Position numbers and translations under genes: made by a program | Notes under the pieces: generated by a model | Told to the model about the DNA's origin: nothing | The model's input: only the letters and a program-made list of their open reading frames with translations | The model's database searches: none | Shown: piece by piece, positions 7,793 to 59,287 of the stretch | Numbering within the stretch: the first letter of the stretch is position 1 | How the letters are laid out: each line of letters starts with the position of its first letter | DNA from: Escherichia coli | GTDB taxonomy: Bacteria > Pseudomonadota > Gammaproteobacteria > Enterobacterales > Enterobacteriaceae | Length of the DNA: 64,000 nucleotides | Assembly (NCBI RefSeq): GCF_022846255.1 | Contig: NZ_AP025682.1 | Direction: 5' to 3' (one strand)

Positions 7793-7868
7793 TGGTGGGT
7801 CGTGCAGGATTCGAACCTGCGACCAATTGATTAAAAGTCAACTGCTCTACCAACTGAGCTAACGACCC
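7793..7868 (-). tRNA. lysV: tRNA-Lys (UUU)
   Basis: Reverse complement reads a 76-nt tRNA with anticodon loop CTTTTAA and 3' CCA. Confidence 0.9.
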
Positions 7869-7872
7869 GAAG

Positions 7873-7948
7873 TGGTGGGTGATGACGGGATCGAACCGCC
7901 GACCCCCTCCTTGTAAGGGAGGTGCTCTCCCAGCTGAGCTAATCACCC
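7873..7948 (-). tRNA. valY: tRNA-Val (UAC)
   Basis: 76-nt tRNA on minus strand; anticodon loop CTTACAA; one of three identical copies. Confidence 0.9.
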
Positions 7949-7994
7949 ACTTCGGTACTTCACATTGTTACAAGAAATCTAGCTGGCGAGAAAG

Positions 7995-8070
7995 TGGTGG
8001 GTGATGACGGGATCGAACCGCCGACCCCCTCCTTGTAAGGGAGGTGCTCTCCCAGCTGAGCTAATCACCC
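7995..8070 (-). tRNA. valX: tRNA-Val (UAC)
   Basis: Identical 76-nt copy. Confidence 0.9.
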
Positions 8071-8114
8071 ACTTCTCAATTTCTTGCTACACGGCGGAGA
8101 CTACATAAAGTAGT

Positions 8115-8190
8115 TGGTGGGTGATGACGGGATCGAACCGCCGACCCCCTCCTTGTAAGGGAGGTGCTCTCCCAGCTGAGCTAATCACCC
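8115..8190 (-). tRNA. valU: tRNA-Val (UAC)
   Basis: Identical 76-nt copy, first gene of the minus-strand tRNA operon. Confidence 0.9.
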
Positions 8191-10888: not shown

Positions 10889-10964
<76 letters not shown>

Positions 10965-11003
10965 AATTTTGCACCCAGCAAATTTGGTACGTAAACGCAT
11001 CGT

Positions 11004-11079
<76 letters not shown>

Positions 11080-51259: not shown

Positions 51260-51460
51260 TTACCCATTGGCGCGGCTTAAGAGCTTATTTTTGAATTCAC
51301 AATGGTCACGATATAACCATCTTGCTCTCCCGTGGATAACTTTGGCTTTTGGCAGGTCGCCGGACTTAATCCGGTCATAGATGAAGGTTTTACCGAAGCC
51401 AGTATCGGCCATGATGAATTTCAAATCAACCAGTGAATCAGGTTGTAGTTCGTGTTGCAT
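51260..51460 (-). CDS. torI: TorI-type excisionase / recombination directionality factor (66 aa)
   Basis: 66-aa ORF MQHELQPDSLVDLKFIMADTGFGKTFIYDRIKSGDLPKAKVIHGRARWLYRDHCEFKNKLLSRANG; matches my recollection of TorI, and is an AlpA/Xis-like winged-helix protein. Confidence 0.8.
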   Translation of the reverse strand: MQHELQPDSLVDLKFIMADTGFGKTFIYDRIKSGDLPKAKVIHGRARWLYRDHCEFKNKLLSRANG

Positions 51461-51584: not shown

Positions 51585-51929
51585 TTAGTCCTTGCGTAAC
51601 TCGCTAATTCTTCTGTAAGTCTCTGGTGCTTTGTTTCCGTGTATCTTCATTTCAGACTTCAACAGAGCAACGAGAGAATCCCATTCGTTGAGGATGCCTT
51701 TGAATGCCGGAACGCGCTTTGCAACCTTGTCGAATGAATCCCTGATTTCTGGAATCTGCTCGACAAGCGCAACGCATCGTCGGAAATCGGCTGCGTCATG
51801 TGGAGCACCGAAGCTATGACCATAGATATTCTTTTTCAGTCCACATGCGATTGAGGCAAGAGTTGCGCTACTGATGCCAACATCGCCAGTCGATTGCCAT
51901 TTCAAAACCTTCATAGCCAAATCTGACAT
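51585..51929 (-). CDS. hypothetical prophage protein (114 aa), no recognisable domain
   Basis: Track ORF; not hydrophobic; I recognise no family. Confidence 0.55.
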   Translation of the reverse strand: MSDLAMKVLKWQSTGDVGISSATLASIACGLKKNIYGHSFGAPHDAADFRRCVALVEQIPEIRDSFDKVAKRVPAFKGILNEWDSLVALLKSEMKIHGNKAPETYRRISELRKD

Positions 51930-51956
51930 TTCTTGTCTCCAATAAAAAAACCGCCA

Positions 51957-52124
51957 TCAGGCGGCTTGGTGTTCTTTCAGTTCTTCAATTCGAATATTGG
52001 TTATGTCTGCATGTGCTATCTGCGCCCATATTATCCAGTGGTCATAGCAGTCGTTGATGTTTTCTGCTTCGATAACCCTGTTGAATGGCTCTCCATTCCA
52101 TTCTCCTGTGACTCGGAAGTGCAT
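51957..52124 (-). CDS. hypothetical small prophage protein (55 aa)
   Basis: Micro-ORF MHFRVTGEWNGEPFNRVIEAENINDCYDHWIIWAQIAHADITNIRIEELKEHQAA whose stop codon sits in a strong terminator hairpin (gccgcctgatggcggc followed by a T-run); absent from the track because it is under 60 aa. Confidence 0.4.
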   Translation of the reverse strand: MHFRVTGEWNGEPFNRVIEAENINDCYDHWIIWAQIAHADITNIRIEELKEHQAA

Positions 52125-52266
52125 TTATCATCTCCATAAAACAAAACTCGCCGTAGCGAGTTCAGATAAAAGAAATCCCCGCGAGGGCGGGGATGTTAAG
52201 TCGGTGGGGGTACAGTATGGATATCGAAAATTATTGCGCGATTCTCATTACTCCCCTGGGAAAACA

Positions 52267-52725
52267 TTATCTGGCAAGCATACGTTGTTGATGCTGTTTC
52301 ACAACACGTAAACGTAAGCTGTCATAGGCCCAATTGTAGAACATGGTATATGGTAGAAAGAAAAGGAAGAATCCTATCTCTAGTGTAAAAGCCTGTAACA
52401 GACTGACGCTCAGAATCCAGGACACCATAATGACGCCGATCGCGATAAATCCACTTTCAAAGCCCAAAGCATGGAATGCACGAACTTTTGCAGTTCGTTT
52501 TACCTGATGAGCAGGCCAGTAGCGATCAAATAGCATGTTATAGATGATATTCCAGATCATTGCAGTTGAAGCCAACAAGATAGTCATCCCGCCCATTTCG
52601 AGTATAGTTCGCTGCATTAACCATGCTGTGGTGGGGGCCAGAATCGCAGTGGCAATTCCTTCAAAGCAAATAGCGTGAAAAATACGCTCAAGTAACGATC
52701 TGTGTTGAATCGCATTATGTTGCAT
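52267..52725 (-). CDS. PACE-family efflux protein (AceI-like; two tandem bacterial-transmembrane-pair repeats)
   Basis: 152 aa, four predicted TM helices, with the signature repeated once per half: ERIFHAICFEG and VRAFHALGFESG (compare AceI RLIHAISYEG / VRILHAIGFEG). Confidence 0.8.
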   Translation of the reverse strand: MQHNAIQHRSLLERIFHAICFEGIATAILAPTTAWLMQRTILEMGGMTILLASTAMIWNIIYNMLFDRYWPAHQVKRTAKVRAFHALGFESGFIAIGVIMVSWILSVSLLQAFTLEIGFFLFFLPYTMFYNWAYDSLRLRVVKQHQQRMLAR

Positions 52726-52828
52726 AACTTACCTTTCTTACAGTTTCGACCGCGTTATGGAGTTGTGAGATTTTTATCGATTTATGTGATATATAAAAGA
52801 TAGATACCATCGAAAAAATTGATAGATT

Positions 52829-53713
52829 ATGCGTTACTCACTTGAAGCGTTAAGTACATTTGTTGAAGTGGTTTCCTGTGGCTCCTTTTCTGCTGCGGCA
52901 CGAAGATTACGTAAAAGTCAGTCCGCAGTCAGTACGTCAATTGCCAATCTTGAGGTCGATCTTGGTATATCATTATTCGATCGCTCTTCGCGAGAACCTG
53001 TGCTGACAGAGGAAGGAAAGAAAGTATTGAGTTACGTTCATGCGATTTTATCAGCCAGTGAACGTCTTGAGGAGGTGGCGGTTTCGCTTGCCGGAGAGAC
53101 TGAAGCTCGTCTGACGTTTGTGCTTTCCGATACCCTACACCCTGACTTATTAGAAGACATCATGGTGCAGTTTGATAGTCAGTTTCCACATACTGAGTTA
53201 GAGGTTTTAATTGGTGAGGATGTCGATGTCATCGATCTTTTGCAAAAAGAACGAGCGCAGATCGGCTTAATTGAGTCTCGGGAACACTACCCCACCGATA
53301 TTGGCTCAACCCGTTTACCGATGCAAGCGTGGATGGGCATTTATGTTTCGGCGTCACATCCACTGTCTGCAGAAAAAACAATCCAGCGGGAACAACTTCA
53401 TTCATGGCGAGAACTTCGTCTTAATACTTATATCGATAACCGGGAGATGATTGCCCGTGGACCGGTTTGGTCTGCACCTAACTATTTGTTGTTACTCAGT
53501 ATGGCCGTACAGGGATTTGGCTGGTGCTCTCTGCCCTGTGCTCTGGTTGAGGAGTTTGCAACAGAAAAACCGCTGGTTCAGCTCGACGTACCTGGCTGGC
53601 CAAAGGCAATTTCTATCGATCTGCTTTGGAATAAAAAATCGCCACCAGGCGCGGCTGGAAATTGGCTTAAGCATCATTTACAGCATATCAATGCCCCAAA
53701 TAGTCGAACTTAG
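52829..53713 (+). CDS. LysR-family transcriptional regulator (AceR-like), divergent from the PACE gene
   Basis: 294-aa ORF with N-terminal LysR HTH (LEALSTFVEVVSCGSFSAAARRLRKSQSAVSTSIANLE); 103-bp divergent intergenic region. Confidence 0.8.
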   Translation: MRYSLEALSTFVEVVSCGSFSAAARRLRKSQSAVSTSIANLEVDLGISLFDRSSREPVLTEEGKKVLSYVHAILSASERLEEVAVSLAGETEARLTFVLSDTLHPDLLEDIMVQFDSQFPHTELEVLIGEDVDVIDLLQKERAQIGLIESREHYPTDIGSTRLPMQAWMGIYVSASHPLSAEKTIQREQLHSWRELRLNTYIDNREMIARGPVWSAPNYLLLLSMAVQGFGWCSLPCALVEEFATEKPLVQLDVPGWPKAISIDLLWNKKSPPGAAGNWLKHHLQHINAPNSRT

Positions 53714-53834
53714 ATTAGTTAAAATATGGAATCCTGAAATAATCTCTGTTGATATGTGGAGCCATCTTCCAGGCTCCCACCTAAATCATGTTAGCAGTTC
53801 CATTTTTTTGATGATTTCCGCATGAGCATCATCG

Positions 53835-53918
53835 TTATCCCCAGCGACAAATTGAATACAAAACCAGTGCTACCGCCATTGCAATTCCTACCGTTGCGAA
53901 TGCTTCAGGCCAGCTCAT
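53835..53918 (-). CDS. hypothetical 27-aa hydrophobic peptide, start overlaps the stop of the upstream gene
   Basis: ATGA overlap with the 214-aa gene; encodes MSWPEAFATVGIAMAVALVLYSICRWG (single predicted TM helix). Confidence 0.25.
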   Translation of the reverse strand: MSWPEAFATVGIAMAVALVLYSICRWG

Positions 53919-54559
53919 TGATTCACCTCCTGCGGCGGTTCTGGTAGTGGTATCCAGAACAAGGCGTTCCCTAACCACGATAAAGTGCCGTCGCTCAACT
54001 CCACGTATTCCCCTTGCACCTGTCCTGCCATATACTCACCGTGCTTTGAATAAATTAAAATCCAATCATCTTGAGCGGGCATTCGCTCACTACAGCTTAT
54101 CCAACCACCCGGAGTTACCGGAGAGTTGCCGCGTTCTTTAATGTGCAAGCGAGGCTCACCATCTTTTGGTTCAGGCCACTGGCGCTCCATGTTGATCTTC
54201 AATTTATCTTCCATAGCAGCGGTAATTTCAGCATCGCTGATGCCAGCACGGCGCTGTGCATCCCACAACAGGAACTGCATATCAGCCCACTCGCTGAGAT
54301 CGTCTGGTTCGGCTGCGGCTTCCAGAGCCTCTTTTGAGAGGTGTTTCAGTGGACCAATGGGGCCAACGCAGCCAAATGTGGAGTCAGACCATTTGGCATG
54401 CTCGTGGCGAATCTGTTCGCGTTCCAGTGAGGCGAGAGCGATTTTAAATGCTGTAAGCATGTGTGCTTGATCGTTGTCGAGTCCGAATGGCATTTCATCT
54501 CGTGCTGACTCAATACTGGTAATCGTATTTTGTAGCCATTCTTTGGTAAAAGTGCTCAT
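53915..54559 (-). CDS. prophage protein with MazG-like nucleotide pyrophosphohydrolase N-terminal domain (DUF550-like) and DUF551-like C-terminal domain
   Basis: 214-aa ORF; N-terminal acidic helices (EALEAAAEPDDLSEWADMQFLLWDAQRR) and C-terminal DUF551-like segment; common in enterobacterial prophages. Confidence 0.55.
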   Translation of the reverse strand: MSTFTKEWLQNTITSIESARDEMPFGLDNDQAHMLTAFKIALASLEREQIRHEHAKWSDSTFGCVGPIGPLKHLSKEALEAAAEPDDLSEWADMQFLLWDAQRRAGISDAEITAAMEDKLKINMERQWPEPKDGEPRLHIKERGNSPVTPGGWISCSERMPAQDDWILIYSKHGEYMAGQVQGEYVELSDGTLSWLGNALFWIPLPEPPQEVNQ

Positions 54560-54927
54560 CGTAAAATATCCTCTATACTGGTAAGTCCTTCATTATTTAG
54601 CCAGATCATGGCGTCATCCGGCAACTTGCTGTCTGGTTTGGCGTTTTTGAGAGAGGAACTCAGTCGCTTAATCCACATTGTCACCTCAGTAATGCGCCTG
54701 TCTTTGCCTTCCAGCTCAACACGCAGCTTCCCTACTGTTAGCGCAATATCCTCGTTCTCCTGGTCGCGGCGTTTGATGTATTGCTGGTTTCTTTCCCGTT
54801 CATCCAGCAGTTCCAGCACAATCGATGGTGTTATCAATTTATGGAAAAGGTCTGCGTCAAATCCCCAGTCGTCATGCATTGCCTGCTCTGCCGCTTCACG
54901 CAGTGCCTGAGAGTTAATTTCGCTCAC
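54556..54927 (-). CDS. Ead/Ea22-like prophage early protein (123 aa)
   Basis: Acidic coiled-coil protein; start overlaps the stop of the upstream zinc-finger gene. Confidence 0.5.
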   Translation of the reverse strand: MSEINSQALREAAEQAMHDDWGFDADLFHKLITPSIVLELLDERERNQQYIKRRDQENEDIALTVGKLRVELEGKDRRITEVTMWIKRLSSSLKNAKPDSKLPDDAMIWLNNEGLTSIEDILR

Positions 54928-55145
54928 TTCGAACCTCTCTGTTTACTGATAAGCTCCAGATCTTCCTGGCAACTTGCACAAGTCCGACAACCCTGAACGG
55001 CCAGGCGTCTTCGCTCATCTATGGGATCGCCACACTCACAACAATGAGTGGCAGATACAGCCTGGTGGTTCAGACGACGCATTTTTATTGCTGTATTGCG
55101 CTGTAATTCTTCGATTTCTGATGCTGAATCAATGATGTCTGCCAT
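54924..55145 (-). CDS. TraR/DksA-family C4 zinc-finger protein (lambda Orf73-like)
   Basis: 73-aa ORF with CxxC-N17-CxxC (CCECG...CRTCASC). Confidence 0.65.
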   Translation of the reverse strand: MADIIDSASEIEELQRNTAIKMRRLNHQAVSATHCCECGDPIDERRRLAVQGCRTCASCQEDLELISKQRGSK

Positions 55146-55243: not shown

Positions 55244-55525
55244 TCACCGTTCCTTAAAGACGCCATTTAACATGCCGATCGCCAGGCTTAAATGAGTCGG
55301 TGTGAATCCCATCAGCGTTACCGTTTCGCGGTGCTTCTTCAGTACGCTACGGCAAATGTCATCGACGTTTTTATCCGGAAACTGCTGTCTGGCATTTTTG
55401 ATTTCAGAATTAGCCTGACGGGCAATGCTGCGAAGGGCGTTTTCTTGCTGAGGTGTCATTGAACAAGTCCCATGTCGGCAAGCATAAGCACACAGAATTT
55501 GAAGCCCGCTGCCAGAAAAATGCAT
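55244..55525 (-). CDS. hypothetical lambda-type early-left protein (start may be the internal Met at 55459, giving 71 aa)
   Basis: Track ORF in the block between the TraR-like gene and exo. Confidence 0.4.
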   Translation of the reverse strand: MHFSGSGLQILCAYACRHGTCSMTPQQENALRSIARQANSEIKNARQQFPDKNVDDICRSVLKKHRETVTLMGFTPTHLSLAIGMLNGVFKER

Positions 55526-55535
55526 TCAGTGGTTG

Positions 55536-55727
55536 TCATACCTGGTCTCTCTCATCTGCTTCTGCTTTCGCCACCATCATTTCCAGCTTTTGTGAAAGGG
55601 ATGTGGCTAACGTATGAAATTCTTCGTCTGTTTCTACTGGTATTGGCACAAACCTGACTCCAATTTGAGCAAGGCTATGTGCCATCTCAATACTCGTTCT
55701 TAACTTAACAGGAGATGCTTTGTGCAT
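55536..55727 (-). CDS. hypothetical lambda-type early-left protein (63 aa)
   Basis: Track ORF; position equivalent to lambda orf63. Confidence 0.4.
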   Translation of the reverse strand: MHKASPVKLRTSIEMAHSLAQIGVRFVPIPVETDEEFHTLATSLSQKLEMMVAKAEADERDQV

Positions 55728-55888
55728 ATCGCCTCCCGTTTATTATTTATCTCCTCAGCCAGCCGCTGGGCTTTCAGTGGATTTTGGATAACAGAAAGGC
55801 CGGGAAATACCCAGCCTCGCTTTGTAACGGAGTAGACGAAAGTGATCGCACCTACCCGGATATTATCGTGAGGATGCGTCATCGCCAT
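55700..55888 (-). CDS. hypothetical lambda-type early-left protein (62 aa)
   Basis: Track ORF directly after exo; position equivalent to lambda orf60a. Confidence 0.35.
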
Positions 55889-56559
55889 TGCTCCCCAAAT
55901 ACAAAACCAATTTCAGCCAGTGCCTCGTCCATTTTTTCGATGAACTCCGGCACCATCTCGTCAAAACTCGCCATGTACTTTTCATCCTGCTCAATCACGA
56001 CATAATGCAGGCCTTCACGCTTCATCCGCGGGTCATAGTTAGCAAAGTACCAGGCATCTTTTCGTGTCACCCACATGCTGTACTGCACCTGGGCCATGTA
56101 AGCCGACTTTATGGCCTCGAAACCACCGAGCCGGAATTTCATGAAATCCCGGGAGGTAAACGGGCATTTCAGTTCAAGGCCGTTGCCGTCACTGCATAAA
56201 CCATCGGGAGAGCAGGCGGTGCGCATACTTTCGTCGCGATAGATGATCGGGGATTCATTAACATTCACGCCGGAAGTGAACTCAAAGAGGGCTCTGGCGT
56301 CGTTCTCGTACTGTTTTCCCCAGGCCAGCGCCTTAGCGTTAACTTCCGGAGCCACACCGGTGCAAACCTCGGCAAGCAGGGTGTGGAAGTAGGACATTTT
56401 CATGTCAGGCCATTTCTTTCCGGAGCGGGGTTTTGCTATCACATTGTGAACTTCTGAAGCGGTGATGATGCCGAGCCGTAATTTGTGCCATGCATCATCC
56501 CCCTGTTCGACAGCTCTCACGTCGATCCCGGTACGCTGCAGGATAATGTCCGGTGTCAT
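55879..56559 (-). CDS. exo: lambda-type 5'-3' exonuclease (Red-alpha)
   Basis: 226-aa ORF near-identical to lambda Exo as I recall it ([30 protein letters not shown]...). Confidence 0.93.
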
Positions 56560-57341
56560 GCTGCCACCTTCTGCTCAGTGGCTTTCTGTTTCAGGAATCC
56601 AAGAGCTTTCACTGCTTCGGCCTGTGTCAGTTCTGACGATGCGCGAATGTCGCGGCGAAATATCTGGGAACAGAGCGGCAATAAGTCGTCATCCCATGTT
56701 TTATCCAGGGCAATCAGCAGAGTGTTAATCTCCTGCATGGTTTCATCGTTAACCGGAGTGATGTCGCGTTCCGGCTGACGTTCTGCAGTGTATGCGGTAT
56801 TTTCGACAATGCGCTCGGCTTCATCCTTGTCATAGATACCAGCAAATCCGAAGGCCAGACGGGCACACTGAATCATGGCTTTATGCCGTAACATCCGTTT
56901 GGGATGCGACTGCCACGGTCCGGTGATTTCTCTGCCTTCGCGGGTTTTGAATGGTTCGCGGCGGCATTCATCCATCCACTCGGTAACGCAGATAGGATGA
57001 TTGCGGTCTTTGCGGTAAATCCGGCATGTGCAGGATTCGTTGTCCTGTTCAAAGTCCATGCCGTCAAACTGCTGGTTTTCGTTGATGATGCGGGACCAGC
57101 CATCAACGCCCACCACCGGAACGATGCCGTTCTGCTTATCAGGGAAGGCGTAAATTTCTTTCGTCCACGGATTAAGGCCGTATTGGTTGGCGACGATCAG
57201 CAATGCGATGAACTGCGCATCGCTGGCATCGCCTTTAAATGCTGTCTGGCGAAGAGTGGTGATCAGTTCCTGTGGGTCGACAGAATCCATGCCGACACGT
57301 TCAGCCAGCTTCCCAGCCAGCGTTGCGAGTGCTGTACTCAT
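56556..57341 (-). CDS. bet: lambda-type single-strand annealing protein (Red-beta)
   Basis: 261-aa ORF near-identical to lambda Bet; start overlaps exo. Confidence 0.93.
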
Positions 57342-57346
57342 CCGTT

Positions 57347-57643
57347 TTATACCTCTAAATCAATATCAACCTGGTGGTGAGCAATGGTTTCAACCATGTA
57401 CCGGATGTGTTCTGCCATGCGCTCCTGAAACTCAACATCGTCATCAAACGCACGGGTAATGGCTTTTTTGCTGGCCCCGTGACGTTGCAAATGATCGATG
57501 CAGAGCGATTCAAACAAATGCTGGGGCAGACCCTTTTCCAGGTCGTCTGCCAGTTCTGCCTCTTTCTCTTCACAGGCGATCTGCTGGTAGTGACGCGCCC
57601 AGCTCTGAGCCTCAAGACGATCCTGAATGTAATAAGCGTTCAT
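57347..57643 (-). CDS. gam: RecBCD inhibitor Gam
   Basis: 98-aa ORF near-identical to lambda GamS ([21 protein letters not shown]...). Confidence 0.9.
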
Positions 57644-57718: not shown

Positions 57719-58009
57719 TTAGTGATTCAGGCCGTTACCGCGTCCGTCGAGAAAAACTTCCACGAGCAAATCACGGGTATAAGTGCGCTCGATGCCGCGA
57801 TGCAGATATAGCCGTCCGCGTAAATTAGCTGATGCAGTCCAGGTACCATCTTTGTGTTTGACCAGCATTCCTGGCATGACCGCACCGCGATTAACGGTCT
57901 GCGTTCCGTAATGTTGATGAACCATAAAAACTCCTGCCCGTAAGCTGGGCTGCTGAACATATAGAGACTTCTGCGCGTATTCAGGCGGTGGATGGCCGCC
58001 GGTTGTCAT
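57719..58009 (-). CDS. hypothetical protein (96 aa), first ORF of the leftward early operon
   Basis: Track ORF preceded by a GAGG ribosome-binding site; matches nothing I recognise from lambda (not N, Kil or CIII). Confidence 0.45.
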
Positions 58010-58059
58010 AACTAAGCCGCCTCGTTGAAGCGACTAAGGTATGAAATGTTGAGTTGATT

Positions 58060-58210
58060 TCAGCTGGTCACACCGACGTTCACGCGTCCGTTTCACCCCT
58101 CGCACTCCCCGAAGCCTGCTGAAATTCAAACTGCGGATCTAAGCGGTCATCGCAACGGTGAATCAGGTGGTTGCCGTATCGTTGTGTTGTTGCGATGAAC
58201 TTATTTAAAA
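58060..58210 (-). ncRNA. structured 5' leader of the leftward early transcript (two long inverted repeats); candidate cis-acting regulatory RNA
   Basis: 9-bp perfect inverted repeat CATCGCAAC/GTTGCGATG (58159-58167 / 58200-58208) and 8-bp inverted repeat ATTTCAGC/GCTGAAAT (58068-58075 / 58129-58136), between the predicted pL and the 96-aa ORF. Confidence 0.3.
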
Positions 58211-58213
58211 CTA

Positions 58214-58256
58214 TAGTTGTTTTATCGTCAACAACAAAAGTTGTTTTATTGGTTGT
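58214..58256 (-). promoter_or_regulatory. candidate pL with overlapping operators (-35 TTGACG, 17-bp spacer, -10 TTAAAT; palindromes AACAAC-N4-GTTGTT and TAAAAC-N7-GTTTTA)
   Basis: Minus-strand hexamers at 58237-58242 and 58214-58219; this cassette is almost a copy of the pR cassette at 59252-59287. Confidence 0.5.
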
Positions 58257-58383
58257 TTTAGATATAACTGGTTGTATTTAGGATGGATTTATTTTGTGAC
58301 TTGAATCGCATAGCGATAACTGAAGCGAGGTTATGGTGGTTTTTTTAACGGTGTGTGTGATGAGGGGAGGGCAAAAGAAAACC

Positions 58384-58410
58384 CGGCACGGTGACCGGGA
58401 TTCTTACGCC
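58384..58410 (-). terminator. rho-independent terminator downstream of the repressor gene
   Basis: Minus-strand hairpin cccggtcaccgtgccggg followed by TTTTCTTTT. Confidence 0.6.
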
Positions 58411-58520
58411 GTTAGGTAAAGATATTATTGCGGTGGCTTAATATTACTACCTAGAGCAAAGATAGGAATTAGTTCTTTACTGAATGAGCACAATGCCCAG
58501 TTGATAATTTTTAATTGGTA

Positions 58521-59210
58521 CTACCCATGCTTCCTATATGTCTGCGGCATGCTCCCAATAACCTTACCGAAGATGAACACCCGGTTCATCTCGTCTTTCT
58601 CGATCGGGTCCCACGGTGAGTAGCTTTTGTTATCAGAGATGACCAGCAGCTTATCCTTCATCATTTGCAGGCGCTTTACATGGGCTGTGTCGTCGTACAG
58701 AAACGCATAGATACCATCACCGTCGAAAGATTTAACTGTGATATCAACGAACAGCAGATCACCTGGTTCGATCGTTCCTGACATGCTGTCACCACGCACG
58801 TTAATGATGCGGATATTTTCCGCCTTCCTACCATCGAACATGTGACGAGCATCGTCAAACGAGTACTCAACCGAGCGTAGAACTTCTACAAACTCACGGT
58901 TGATGACTCCCGGCCCAGCACTGACTTCTATATCAAGAACGTCAATCTTAAAGTATTTGGAATGGCTGACAGTTGATAGTATTGGTTGCACTGTACTGTC
59001 TGACATATTTCCAACGCCAGAAGATAACCATTCTGCGCGCACACCCAAAGCGTTCGCGATCTCCACGATTTTAGTTGTTTGATTAGCTTTCCCTGTTTCG
59101 ATTTTCTGAATAGCAGCCTGGCTAACCCCGACCAAATCCCCAAGCGCCTTTTGTGTAAGGCCTCGCGCTAATCTGGCTTCTTTAAGTCTTTCTGAGAGTG
59201 TTGTTTTCAT
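58521..59210 (-). CDS. cI: CI-like prophage repressor (XRE-type HTH plus S24 LexA-like peptidase domain)
   Basis: 229 aa from the Met at 59210 (track ORF extends to 59273); HTH LTQKALGDLVGVSQAAIQKIE; C-terminal GDSM...K autocleavage-type domain; start lacks a Shine-Dalgarno, consistent with a leaderless pRM-type mRNA. Confidence 0.85.
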   Translation of the reverse strand: MKTTLSERLKEARLARGLTQKALGDLVGVSQAAIQKIETGKANQTTKIVEIANALGVRAEWLSSGVGNMSDSTVQPILSTVSHSKYFKIDVLDIEVSAGPGVINREFVEVLRSVEYSFDDARHMFDGRKAENIRIINVRGDSMSGTIEPGDLLFVDITVKSFDGDGIYAFLYDDTAHVKRLQMMKDKLLVISDNKSYSPWDPIEKDEMNRVFIFGKVIGSMPQTYRKHG

Positions 59211-59216
59211 AGTCCA

Positions 59217-59287
59217 AATGTACAACCAAGGTTTTATTCCATCAAACGAAAATGGTTGTTGACTAAAAAACAACCATAGTTTTAATC
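59217..59287. promoter_or_regulatory. cI-cro divergent control region: candidate pRM (minus; -35 TTGATG, -10 TACATT), pR (plus; -35 TTGACT, -10 TTAATC) and operator palindrome ATGGTTGTT-N8-AACAACCAT
   Basis: 26-bp palindrome 59252..59277 overlapping the pR -35; pRM -10 ends 7 bp before the cI ATG. Confidence 0.5.

Follow-up and report, generated by a model that had tools for sequence, protein, structure and literature searches.

Phage lambda has seven open reading frames (ORFs) in its exo-xis region and orf55 is one of them (PMC3824215); it corresponds to lambdap35, located between ea8.5 and xis as the last ORF of that region. The proteins of the exo-xis region have been described as a 'non-essential modulator' of the host and of the lysis-lysogeny decision (PMC3824215, PMC9239242), and the statement of PMC9239242 that cites Sergueev et al. 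(2002) implicates orf73, ea22, ea8.5 and orf55 together in a block of host replication initiation. Lambda Orf55 has been modelled with three strands and one helix and considered similar to Gp2 (PMC8614690), the inhibitor of Escherichia coli RNA polymerase found in phage T7. In phage 434 an ORF114 accompanies ORF55 and both are annotated in GenBank M60848, together with the terminators t'-I and t-L4, at positions that match those described below, while the record of phage HK022 carries the labels 'N15 early protein homolog' and 'undocumented homolog present in lambda'. Here we have analyzed the genes ORF55 and ORF114 of a lambdoid prophage located at the argW/dsdC site within a stretch of 64,000 nucleotides (nt) of E. 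coli DNA, the whole of which we call the window. We have found that each of them is a mosaic module independent of the other, that both occupy the same slot of the prophage and that they do not form a functional pair. The features of the slot are the following.

52194-52175 and 52163-52144, minus strand: tandem terminator hairpins upstream of the ORF55 ribosome-binding site, at the 't-L4' position in 434
51957-52124, minus strand: ORF55, 55 amino acids (aa), ATG start, from the ORF listing; PHROG 676
51941-51967, minus strand: intrinsic terminator between ORF55 and ORF114, 8-bp stem, TGAT loop, T7 run, from the terminator scan
51930-51947, minus strand: linker TTTTATTGGAGACAAGAA, which holds the Shine-Dalgarno GGAG of ORF114 (51940-51937)
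51585-51929, minus strand: ORF114, 114 aa, ATG start, from the ORF listing; PHROG 1229
51579-51561 and 51526-51511, minus strand: two terminator-like hairpins between ORF114 and torI, at the t'-I position in 434
51260-51460, minus strand: torI, prophage excisionase, from the RefSeq annotation of a 99.8% identical locus; phrog_66 excisionase

The order on the minus strand is therefore ORF55, ORF114 and torI, the latter being the next gene downstream of ORF114 and transcribed in the same direction. A GGAG ribosome-binding site is found 7 nt 5' of each ATG (51940-51937 for ORF114 and 52135-52132 for ORF55). A preliminary description of the locus had placed two minus-strand ORFs of 114 and 55 aa at these coordinates, which the ORF listing bears out, and had located them just inside the end of a lambdoid prophage, where accessory genes are usual. 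They are genuine accessory genes and the end is the int/xis-proximal one. ORF55 is on the same strand as the excisionase gene, in the part of the early-left operon closest to xis, which is the position found for the PHROG 676 family.

Identity of the two genes

ORF55 is identical to lambda Orf55 (lambdap35, NP_597778) at 53 of 55 residues (96%) and matches phrog_676 over profile positions 1-55 of 55 (E 2.1e-38). ORF114 matches phrog_1229 along residues 1-114 (E 1.9e-51), and its protein identity is 96.5% to the phage 434 version and 97.4% to HK022 gp32. The whole ORF55-ORF114 unit of 601 bp is 95-98% identical to the ones of Gally, mEp043, mEp213, 434, HK022 and several Stx phages. Judged by these identities, ORF55 can be considered the orthologue of lambda Orf55 and 434 ORF55, and ORF114 that of 434 ORF114 and HK022 gp32. 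We are practically certain of their identity and gene organization as catalogued lambdoid early genes. The pair had been called 'unrecognised' and this has to be withdrawn, since the proteins are lambda Orf55 and the ORF114 of 434 and HK022 (PHROGs 676 and 1229). The statement that neither has a recognizable domain stands, as no model of Pfam, NCBIfam or PADLOC (defence-system models) matches ORF55 or ORF114. PDB sequence searches with single sequences and profiles of both proteins gave nothing below E 0.3, and a literature search by accession numbers and PHROG ids found nothing. The pair was missed by the domain databases yet was already present in the phage literature, where it is known as sequence features; the homology is to lambda-type early genes, but to none with an established function.

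The similarity to lambda Orf55 extends to the orientation, the operon, the tandem hairpins upstream and the terminator that has the stop codon in its loop. However, the lambda gene is located directly before xis, whereas in the window ORF114 lies in between, the excisionase is TorI and an insert with a PACE transporter and a LysR regulator is found immediately upstream. In the case of 434 ORF114/ORF55 and HK022 gp32/gp33, both genes and the same flanking terminators are found, with 95-96% nucleotide identity over the 601 bp, but their pair adjoins Xis and Int of the lambda type and the one of the window adjoins torI at the argW/dsdC site. The other exo-xis proteins of lambda (Orf73/TraR-like, Ea22, Ea8.5, Orf60a, Orf61 and Orf63) share with ORF55 and ORF114 the operon segment and the timing, and homologues of orf60a, orf63, orf61 and orf73 are found upstream in the window. 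They differ in that they have no sequence or fold relation to ORF55 or ORF114 and in that several have experimental phenotypes.

Purifying selection and independent assortment

We have estimated selection by Nei-Gojobori comparisons, and both frames are under purifying selection. The ORF55 of the window compared with its homologue in a Klebsiella prophage (72% aa identity) gave a ratio of nonsynonymous to synonymous change (dN/dS) of 0.10, with a dS of ~2.1 that is already saturated. For ORF114 the ratio among E. coli phages was between 0.04 and 0.11 when only comparisons having 6 or more synonymous differences were considered. Third codon positions accounted for 35 of the 57 variable columns of ORF55 and for 80 of 147 in ORF114. 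The frame of 55 aa is thus conserved as a coding frame, and the suggestion that the genes could be a remnant is excluded for the copy of the window by the selection acting on both.

A survey of co-occurrence, proposed in the preliminary description, was carried out over 5,426 complete E. coli genomes with DNA queries at a coverage of at least 80%, and it indicates that the genes assort independently. ORF114 was present in 914 genomes and ORF55 in 2,196 (~40%), but the two were contiguous in only 295, i.e., the adjacent partner was absent in about two thirds of the genomes carrying ORF114 and in 87% of those carrying ORF55. The partial matches had their breakpoints at query positions 356-371, equivalent to 51940-51955 of the window, which is the intergenic terminator. 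This terminator is the recombination joint between the two modules. We found ORF55 directly before xis and without ORF114 in lambda and in two Klebsiella-type prophages, and the opposite situation, ORF114 beside int/xis without ORF55, in E. coli HS, in an O157:H7 strain and in the P22-like phage SPN9CC. The pair, or one of the genes alone, adjoins at least three unrelated excisionase types (lambda Xis, SfX-type and AlpA/TorI-type). A 'two-gene cassette', as the pair had been presented, does not agree with these counts of adjacent and single genes or with the terminator and mosaic joint found in between.

A type II toxin-antitoxin system had also been suggested, and the charges of the proteins would allow an acidic ORF55 (isoelectric point, pI, 4.9, net charge ~-6) to act as antitoxin of a basic ORF114 (pI 9.2). 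The frequent absence of the adjacent partner is against it, and so is the presence of ORF114 relatives without ORF55 in Vibrio, Arthrobacter, Aeromonas and P22-like phages. Besides, the genes are separated by an intrinsic terminator, no promoter was found upstream and neither protein matches toxin or antitoxin families in Pfam, NCBIfam or PADLOC. Taking together the distribution, the terminator, the lack of a promoter and the lack of homology, this explanation is very unlikely, to the point that we give it hardly any credence. GenBank already has these genes in its records for lambda, 434 and HK022, and thousands of E. coli genomes carry them; the window has in this sense little discovery value. 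Its value is in clearing the interpretation, as there is no toxin-antitoxin pair, no linked cassette and no debris.

A mosaic joint has also been found within the coding sequence of ORF114. In the Stx phage vB_EcoP_phi419 (L023, 2501-3332) the first 56 codons are kept (96% identical) and are followed by a DNA methyltransferase gene. Chimeras of this type account for many of the database proteins whose match covers only half of ORF114.

The core of the linker, TTTTATTGGAGACAA (51933-51947, made of the T-run and the Shine-Dalgarno), occurs in another prophage too (L028, ~1470-1500), there before an ORF55 homologue that has a different gene upstream, NinX-like. Because it appears before an ORF55 homologue elsewhere, it looks like a candidate reusable module-boundary sequence at which lambdoid mosaics may recombine.

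Terminators and the stop codon of ORF55

The region is dense in terminators. We detected 8 terminator-like sites in a stretch of 1.8 kb, against 1.4 +/- 1.2 in shuffled sequences, and five of the eight are on the minus strand within ~700 bp. Two of these lie just 5' of ORF55, another is at its stop codon, and the remaining two lie 3' of ORF114. The tandem hairpins 5' of ORF55 have a joint fold of -28.6 kcal/mol (z -4.56) and are conserved in lambda, 434, HK022, mEp213, Gally and 720R6. Actually, a terminator hairpin was found just 5' of the ribosome-binding site in every ORF55 homologue inspected, with the exception of Tbat2_3 and the P0109 contig.

The hairpin at the end of ORF55 (minus strand, 51967-51948) reads AAGCCGCC-TGAT-GGCGGTTT, with a T-run after it (51947-51941), and its centroid fold has an energy of -13 kcal/mol. 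As had been pointed out before, the stop codon lies in the loop, the TGA (51959-51957) being three of its four bases. Lambda has the same stop-codon hairpin 30 nt before the ATG of xis. In the Klebsiella prophage and two close relatives (P0109 and P0111) the arrangement is GCCGCC-(CAC/AAC)TGA-GGCGG and then a T-run, and the Tbat2_3 homologue (49% identical) has a different stem, GUCGCU/AGCGGC, with a TAG at the edge of the loop. Pseudomonas phage 15b has only a weak hairpin at the stop of its homologue. The embedding of the stop in a terminator is thus conserved among the ORF55 homologues inspected. Since it has been kept in the Klebsiella prophage with its two relatives and in Tbat2_3 with two other stem sequences, an effect of translation on termination is possible, and since a ribosome that finishes ORF55 would cover the hairpin, a translation-sensitive read-through toward ORF114, xis and int is plausible. 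In this way, the translation of ORF55 may also lower termination ahead of ORF114 and xis.

Taken to its extreme, ORF55 would be mainly a cis-acting regulatory ORF, in which the ribosomes that finish on the hairpin set the early-left read-through into ORF114 and the excisionase and integrase genes. In lambda, in the Klebsiella prophage with its relatives and in Tbat2_3 the stop codon is located in the loop or where the loop meets the stem; these homologues are 49-96% identical and have different stems (GCCGCC/GGCGG in the Klebsiella prophage and its relatives, GUCGCU/AGCGGC in Tbat2_3). The 5' arm of the stem codes for the last five residues of ORF55, for which disorder is predicted. However, the protein is strongly conserved, with a compact fold predicted confidently and a dN/dS of ~0.1 over its whole length, which is unexpected for a leader peptide. 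Antiterminated transcription would ignore the hairpin anyway, the hairpin is weak in phage 15b, and overlaps of stop codons with terminators are common in compact genomes. We consider it quite unlikely that the regulatory role is the main one.

The Rfam family isrK, an Hfq-binding small RNA, gave a match over the 3' end of ORF55 and the terminator (51944-52007, minus strand; 17.3 bits, E 0.55). We have rejected it because it is below the gathering score of 50 and is probably driven by the terminator alone.

Distribution and predicted fold of ORF55

The ORF55 family is narrow. It was found in 85 phage records, nearly all of them E. coli lambdoid phages, and beyond these only in Klebsiella-type prophages and in two relatives at ~50% identity. 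The protein is soluble and has no membrane segment, the maximum hydropathy over 19 residues being 0.49 when the transmembrane threshold is ~1.6. An AlphaFold2 model based on an alignment of 24 sequences has a predicted local distance difference test (pLDDT) value of 89 and a beta-beta-alpha-beta arrangement, with strands at residues 2-9, 12-19 and 41-49 and a helix at 23-37; the disordered last five residues have a pLDDT of 57. The topology agrees with that of the published model of lambda Orf55 (PMC8614690). The solved structures with a similar fold include PurS (6.6), the archaeal/eukaryotic ribosomal protein eL20 (6.3), the RNA polymerase epsilon subunit (4.7), T7 Gp2 (4.7 and 4.3), AcrIE2 (4.6), phage p56 (4.5) and T4 Dmd (4.3).

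According to the model, ORF55 shares size, charge and topology with several small stoichiometric inhibitors encoded by phages, its shape being that of T7 Gp2, phi29-type p56, T4 Dmd and AcrIE2, which inhibit host proteins. With the fold as predicted, it would most likely bind a host protein and block it stoichiometrically. The targets that could be considered from the literature are RNA polymerase, from the modelling study, and the replication-initiation machinery, from the work on the lambda region orf73, ea22, ea8.5 and orf55. For a gene carried by phage lambda itself and by so large a part of the complete E. coli genomes, the role is inferred only.

ORF114, a widespread family

The family of ORF114 is much more extended. 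An HMMER scan of 1.84 billion cluster representatives gave 1,901 matches at E<=1e-3 and 192 at E<=1e-10, counted as clusters at 50% identity. By tblastn, relatives were found in 275 phage records, among them 150 of Vibrio, 34 of Salmonella and 30 of Escherichia, and also in records of Aeromonas, Arthrobacter, Mannheimia, Yersinia and Klebsiella phages. There were 133 plasmids with relatives, 109 of them from Pseudomonas, and those listed have sizes of 290-584 kb. The family spans therefore phages of Proteobacteria to Actinobacteria and megaplasmids. The relatives appear in the following contexts.

Lambdoid phages, P22-like phages and a megaplasmid: adjoining int/xis
9NA-like, Aeromonas and Vibrio phages: within groups of small early genes
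A Vibrio phage: inserted in the tail module on the opposite strand

In the Pseudomonas plasmid pR31014-IMP (L021, 3399-9627) the relative is divergent from a pair formed by an integrase and a helix-turn-helix gene. After the relative come the genes of a site-specific DNA methyltransferase, a DUF6685 protein and an N-6 DNA methylase.

We have examined the domain architecture of 129 representatives. The domain is alone in 71, has N-terminal extensions in 34, C-terminal extensions in 13 and both in 1, and is a tandem duplicate in 1. None of the 129 has an informative partner domain; apart from one ribosomal L12 domain and the case that follows, the partners are unannotated. A metagenomic protein of 558 aa (P0286) has the domain C-terminal to a CCA-adding/poly(A) polymerase head, an RNA-binding domain and an HD domain. 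Given the internal Met codons at the junction, this protein may be two neighboring genes merged by the gene caller, and in either case they are neighbors.

Along the 121 aligned domains we have defined a signature of 13 residues, W11 G18 S20 S21 G30 P43 D45 D48 R51 C52 L55 P60 W83, each at least 90% conserved, and all 13 are present in the ORF114 of the window. The AlphaFold2 model (49 sequences) is all-helical, with seven helices, a pLDDT of 95.8 and a predicted template modelling score (pTM) of 0.89. In the model the G-x-S-S motif is at the N-terminus of helix 2 and P-x-D-x-x-D-x-x-R-C runs into helix 3. A Foldseek search against AFDB50 retrieved at E<=0.001 only uncharacterized or generically named proteins, and the model has no match to a solved fold, the family being also without a Pfam or NCBIfam model. 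Like ORF55, ORF114 is soluble and has no membrane segment (maximum 19-residue hydropathy 1.02, with the same threshold of ~1.6).

The most likely function, to judge from these features, is that ORF114 would bind a conserved ligand or macromolecule of the host, or catalyze a reaction on one, acting through its conserved pocket as a host-takeover or counter-defence factor. A small stand-alone domain with a conserved polar cluster, present in phages whose hosts are very distant, makes a universal host component or a small molecule a likelier target than a strain-specific protein. A stronger proposal, which we regard as unlikely, is that the family would have a new fold with a catalytic or ligand-binding pocket (G-x-S-S / P-x-D-x-x-D-x-x-R-C), directed against a universal host target or immune signal by phages as distant as those of Arthrobacter, Vibrio and E. 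coli. If it were true, ORF114 would be a previously unnamed and widespread host-takeover or counter-defence family. A second and smaller proposal is that the terminator of ORF55 would work in lambda-type phages as a translation-sensitive gate for the expression of excisionase and integrase. In any case, the ORF114 family is large, sharply defined and uncharacterized, and its functional and structural study would be worthwhile and cheap.

Counter-defence overlaps with a host-directed role in general but names a specific class of targets; one or both proteins would neutralize an anti-phage system by acting as a sponge, by enzymatic action or by stoichiometric inhibition. The slot is among early accessory genes that are exchanged fast, near Abc2, Gam, Ral-type and Lar-type genes, and the fold class of ORF55 includes AcrIE2, Dmd and p56. 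ORF114 stands alone across very different phages and megaplasmids, sometimes as the opposite-strand insert in a tail module mentioned above, and its conserved polar cluster would be suited to ligand binding. However, neither protein has homology to characterized anti-defence proteins in Pfam, NCBIfam, PDB sequences or PDB folds. Neither sequence is in the supplements of one accessory-gene screen, and a related preprint names no HK022, mEp or lambdoid phages. Besides, the residues of ORF114 are nearly invariant between phages of Actinobacteria and Proteobacteria, which is more in line with a universal target than with a defence protein specific to a strain. Counter-defence is possible but we find it rather doubtful.

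Expression of the two genes

A simple consensus scan found no sigma-70-like promoter before ORF55 or ORF114 on the minus strand, and both genes are bracketed by intrinsic terminators. The terminators around each gene, together with the lack of a promoter in the scan, suggest that the repressed lysogen would express neither. Both would be produced only upon induction or infection, by a terminator-resistant early-left transcription that reads through to torI.

Another explanation considered was that the genes are morons, i.e., genes of lysogenic conversion or superinfection exclusion expressed from the prophage to the benefit of the lysogen. The bracketing by terminators is as in morons, both genes are intact in a heavily decayed prophage (E. 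coli 2013C-4282, see below) beside the PACE transporter cargo, and the insert in the tail module of the Vibrio phage is on the opposite strand. Yet the consensus scan gave no sigma-70-like promoter for either gene, there is no membrane segment or signal-like N-terminus as in typical exclusion proteins, and relatives of ORF114 are found in 9NA-like and other phages that have no integrase in the region examined. We consider this explanation highly improbable, and the same observations make unlikely the superinfection exclusion that had been suggested initially.

The early-left transcript would start in a noncoding leader of ~510 nt (58010-58520, minus strand), with a promoter-like TTGACG...TTAAAT and repeated AAAACAAC motifs. 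The leader is common to phages PhiR34_1, Turner, 4A7, D2 and others. We looked there for a put-like RNA and found no similarity to the cI-nun intergenic region of HK022; the leader is not unusually structured either, with a fold z of only -0.9.

A proposed host-directed role

Our interpretation is that ORF55 and ORF114 are two independent and selected accessory genes of the lambdoid exo-xis region, directed at the host and expressed on induction. We favor it with a confidence that is only somewhat better than even. The biochemical functions proposed above for the two proteins are a separate matter and are offered as tentative suggestions, more of which could fail than hold.

Several observations weigh against this interpretation. 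Among the fold matches of ORF55, Gp2 ranks only 25th, behind PurS and eL20, indicating that the fold is generic and the likeness to Gp2 unspecific. No PDB sequence match between ORF55 and Gp2 was obtained even at E<=10, with a single sequence or with a profile. The two arginines of strand 3 that Gp2 needs to bind the beta' jaw have as equivalents N43 and R45 in ORF55 (PMC8614690), and R45 is a Q in clusters P0085 and P0093, so that ORF55 differs from Gp2 in lacking sequence similarity and in having one key arginine replaced by Asn and the other not invariant. The published likeness appears reproducible in our models, but weak, generic and not specific. A literature search turned up no experiment on ORF55 or ORF114, and the search for ORF114 with 434, xis or lambdoid returned no relevant paper. 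ORF114 is truncated in some Stx phages, and is therefore dispensable. The overlap of stop codon and terminator, common as it is, does not require a regulatory role. Finally, there is the matter of the read-through. Phages of the lambda type carry N between the repressor and kil. In the window no N-like ORF of at least 60 aa was found between the CI-like repressor (58521-59273) and kil (57719-58009), and hence the read-through of the terminators is a supposition for this prophage.

Neighboring genes

Upstream of ORF55 the following features were found.

52267-52725, minus strand: PACE efflux transporter (NF033665, 205 bits against a cut-off of 165)
52829-53713, plus strand: LysR regulator
53915-54559, minus strand: ORF of 214 aa, which matches, with its 123-aa neighbor, unannotated phage families (phrog_60/phrog_250)
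54556-54927, minus strand: ORF of 123 aa, which matches, with its 214-aa neighbor, unannotated phage families (phrog_60/phrog_250)
54924-55145, minus strand: Orf73/TraR-like
55244-55888, minus strand: orf61-, orf63- and orf60a-like ORFs
55879-56559, minus strand: ORF of 226 aa in the exo position, candidate by size and position
56556-57341, minus strand: ORF of 261 aa in the bet position, candidate by size and position
57347-57643, minus strand: gam
57719-58009, minus strand: kil
58521-59273, minus strand: CI-like repressor

This order of genes on the exo, gam and kil side places ORF55 and ORF114 at the distal end of the early-left operon, in the exo-xis region.

A multidrug/biocide efflux gene of the PACE family and a divergent LysR regulator have been inserted inside the exo-xis region of the prophage (52200-53900). 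The insert begins just past the tandem terminators 5' of ORF55, where the homology to phages ends (~52198-52201). Among the genomes listed, only 5 E. coli genomes have in common this junction of PACE/LysR and phage DNA. In one strain, 2013C-4282 (NZ_CP027579, 9061-12725), the prophage has decayed to ~3.5 kb, in which torI, ORF114, ORF55, the PACE transporter and LysR are all intact. Beyond them there are pseudogenes of a dATP/dGTP pyrophosphohydrolase-domain protein and of intS, adjoining a tRNA-Arg. The accessory genes have outlasted in this strain the rest of the phage.

The window also contains six tRNA genes in two clusters, at 7796-8190 (minus strand) and 10889-11076 (plus strand), which are ordinary chromosomal arrays and are unrelated to ORF55 and ORF114.

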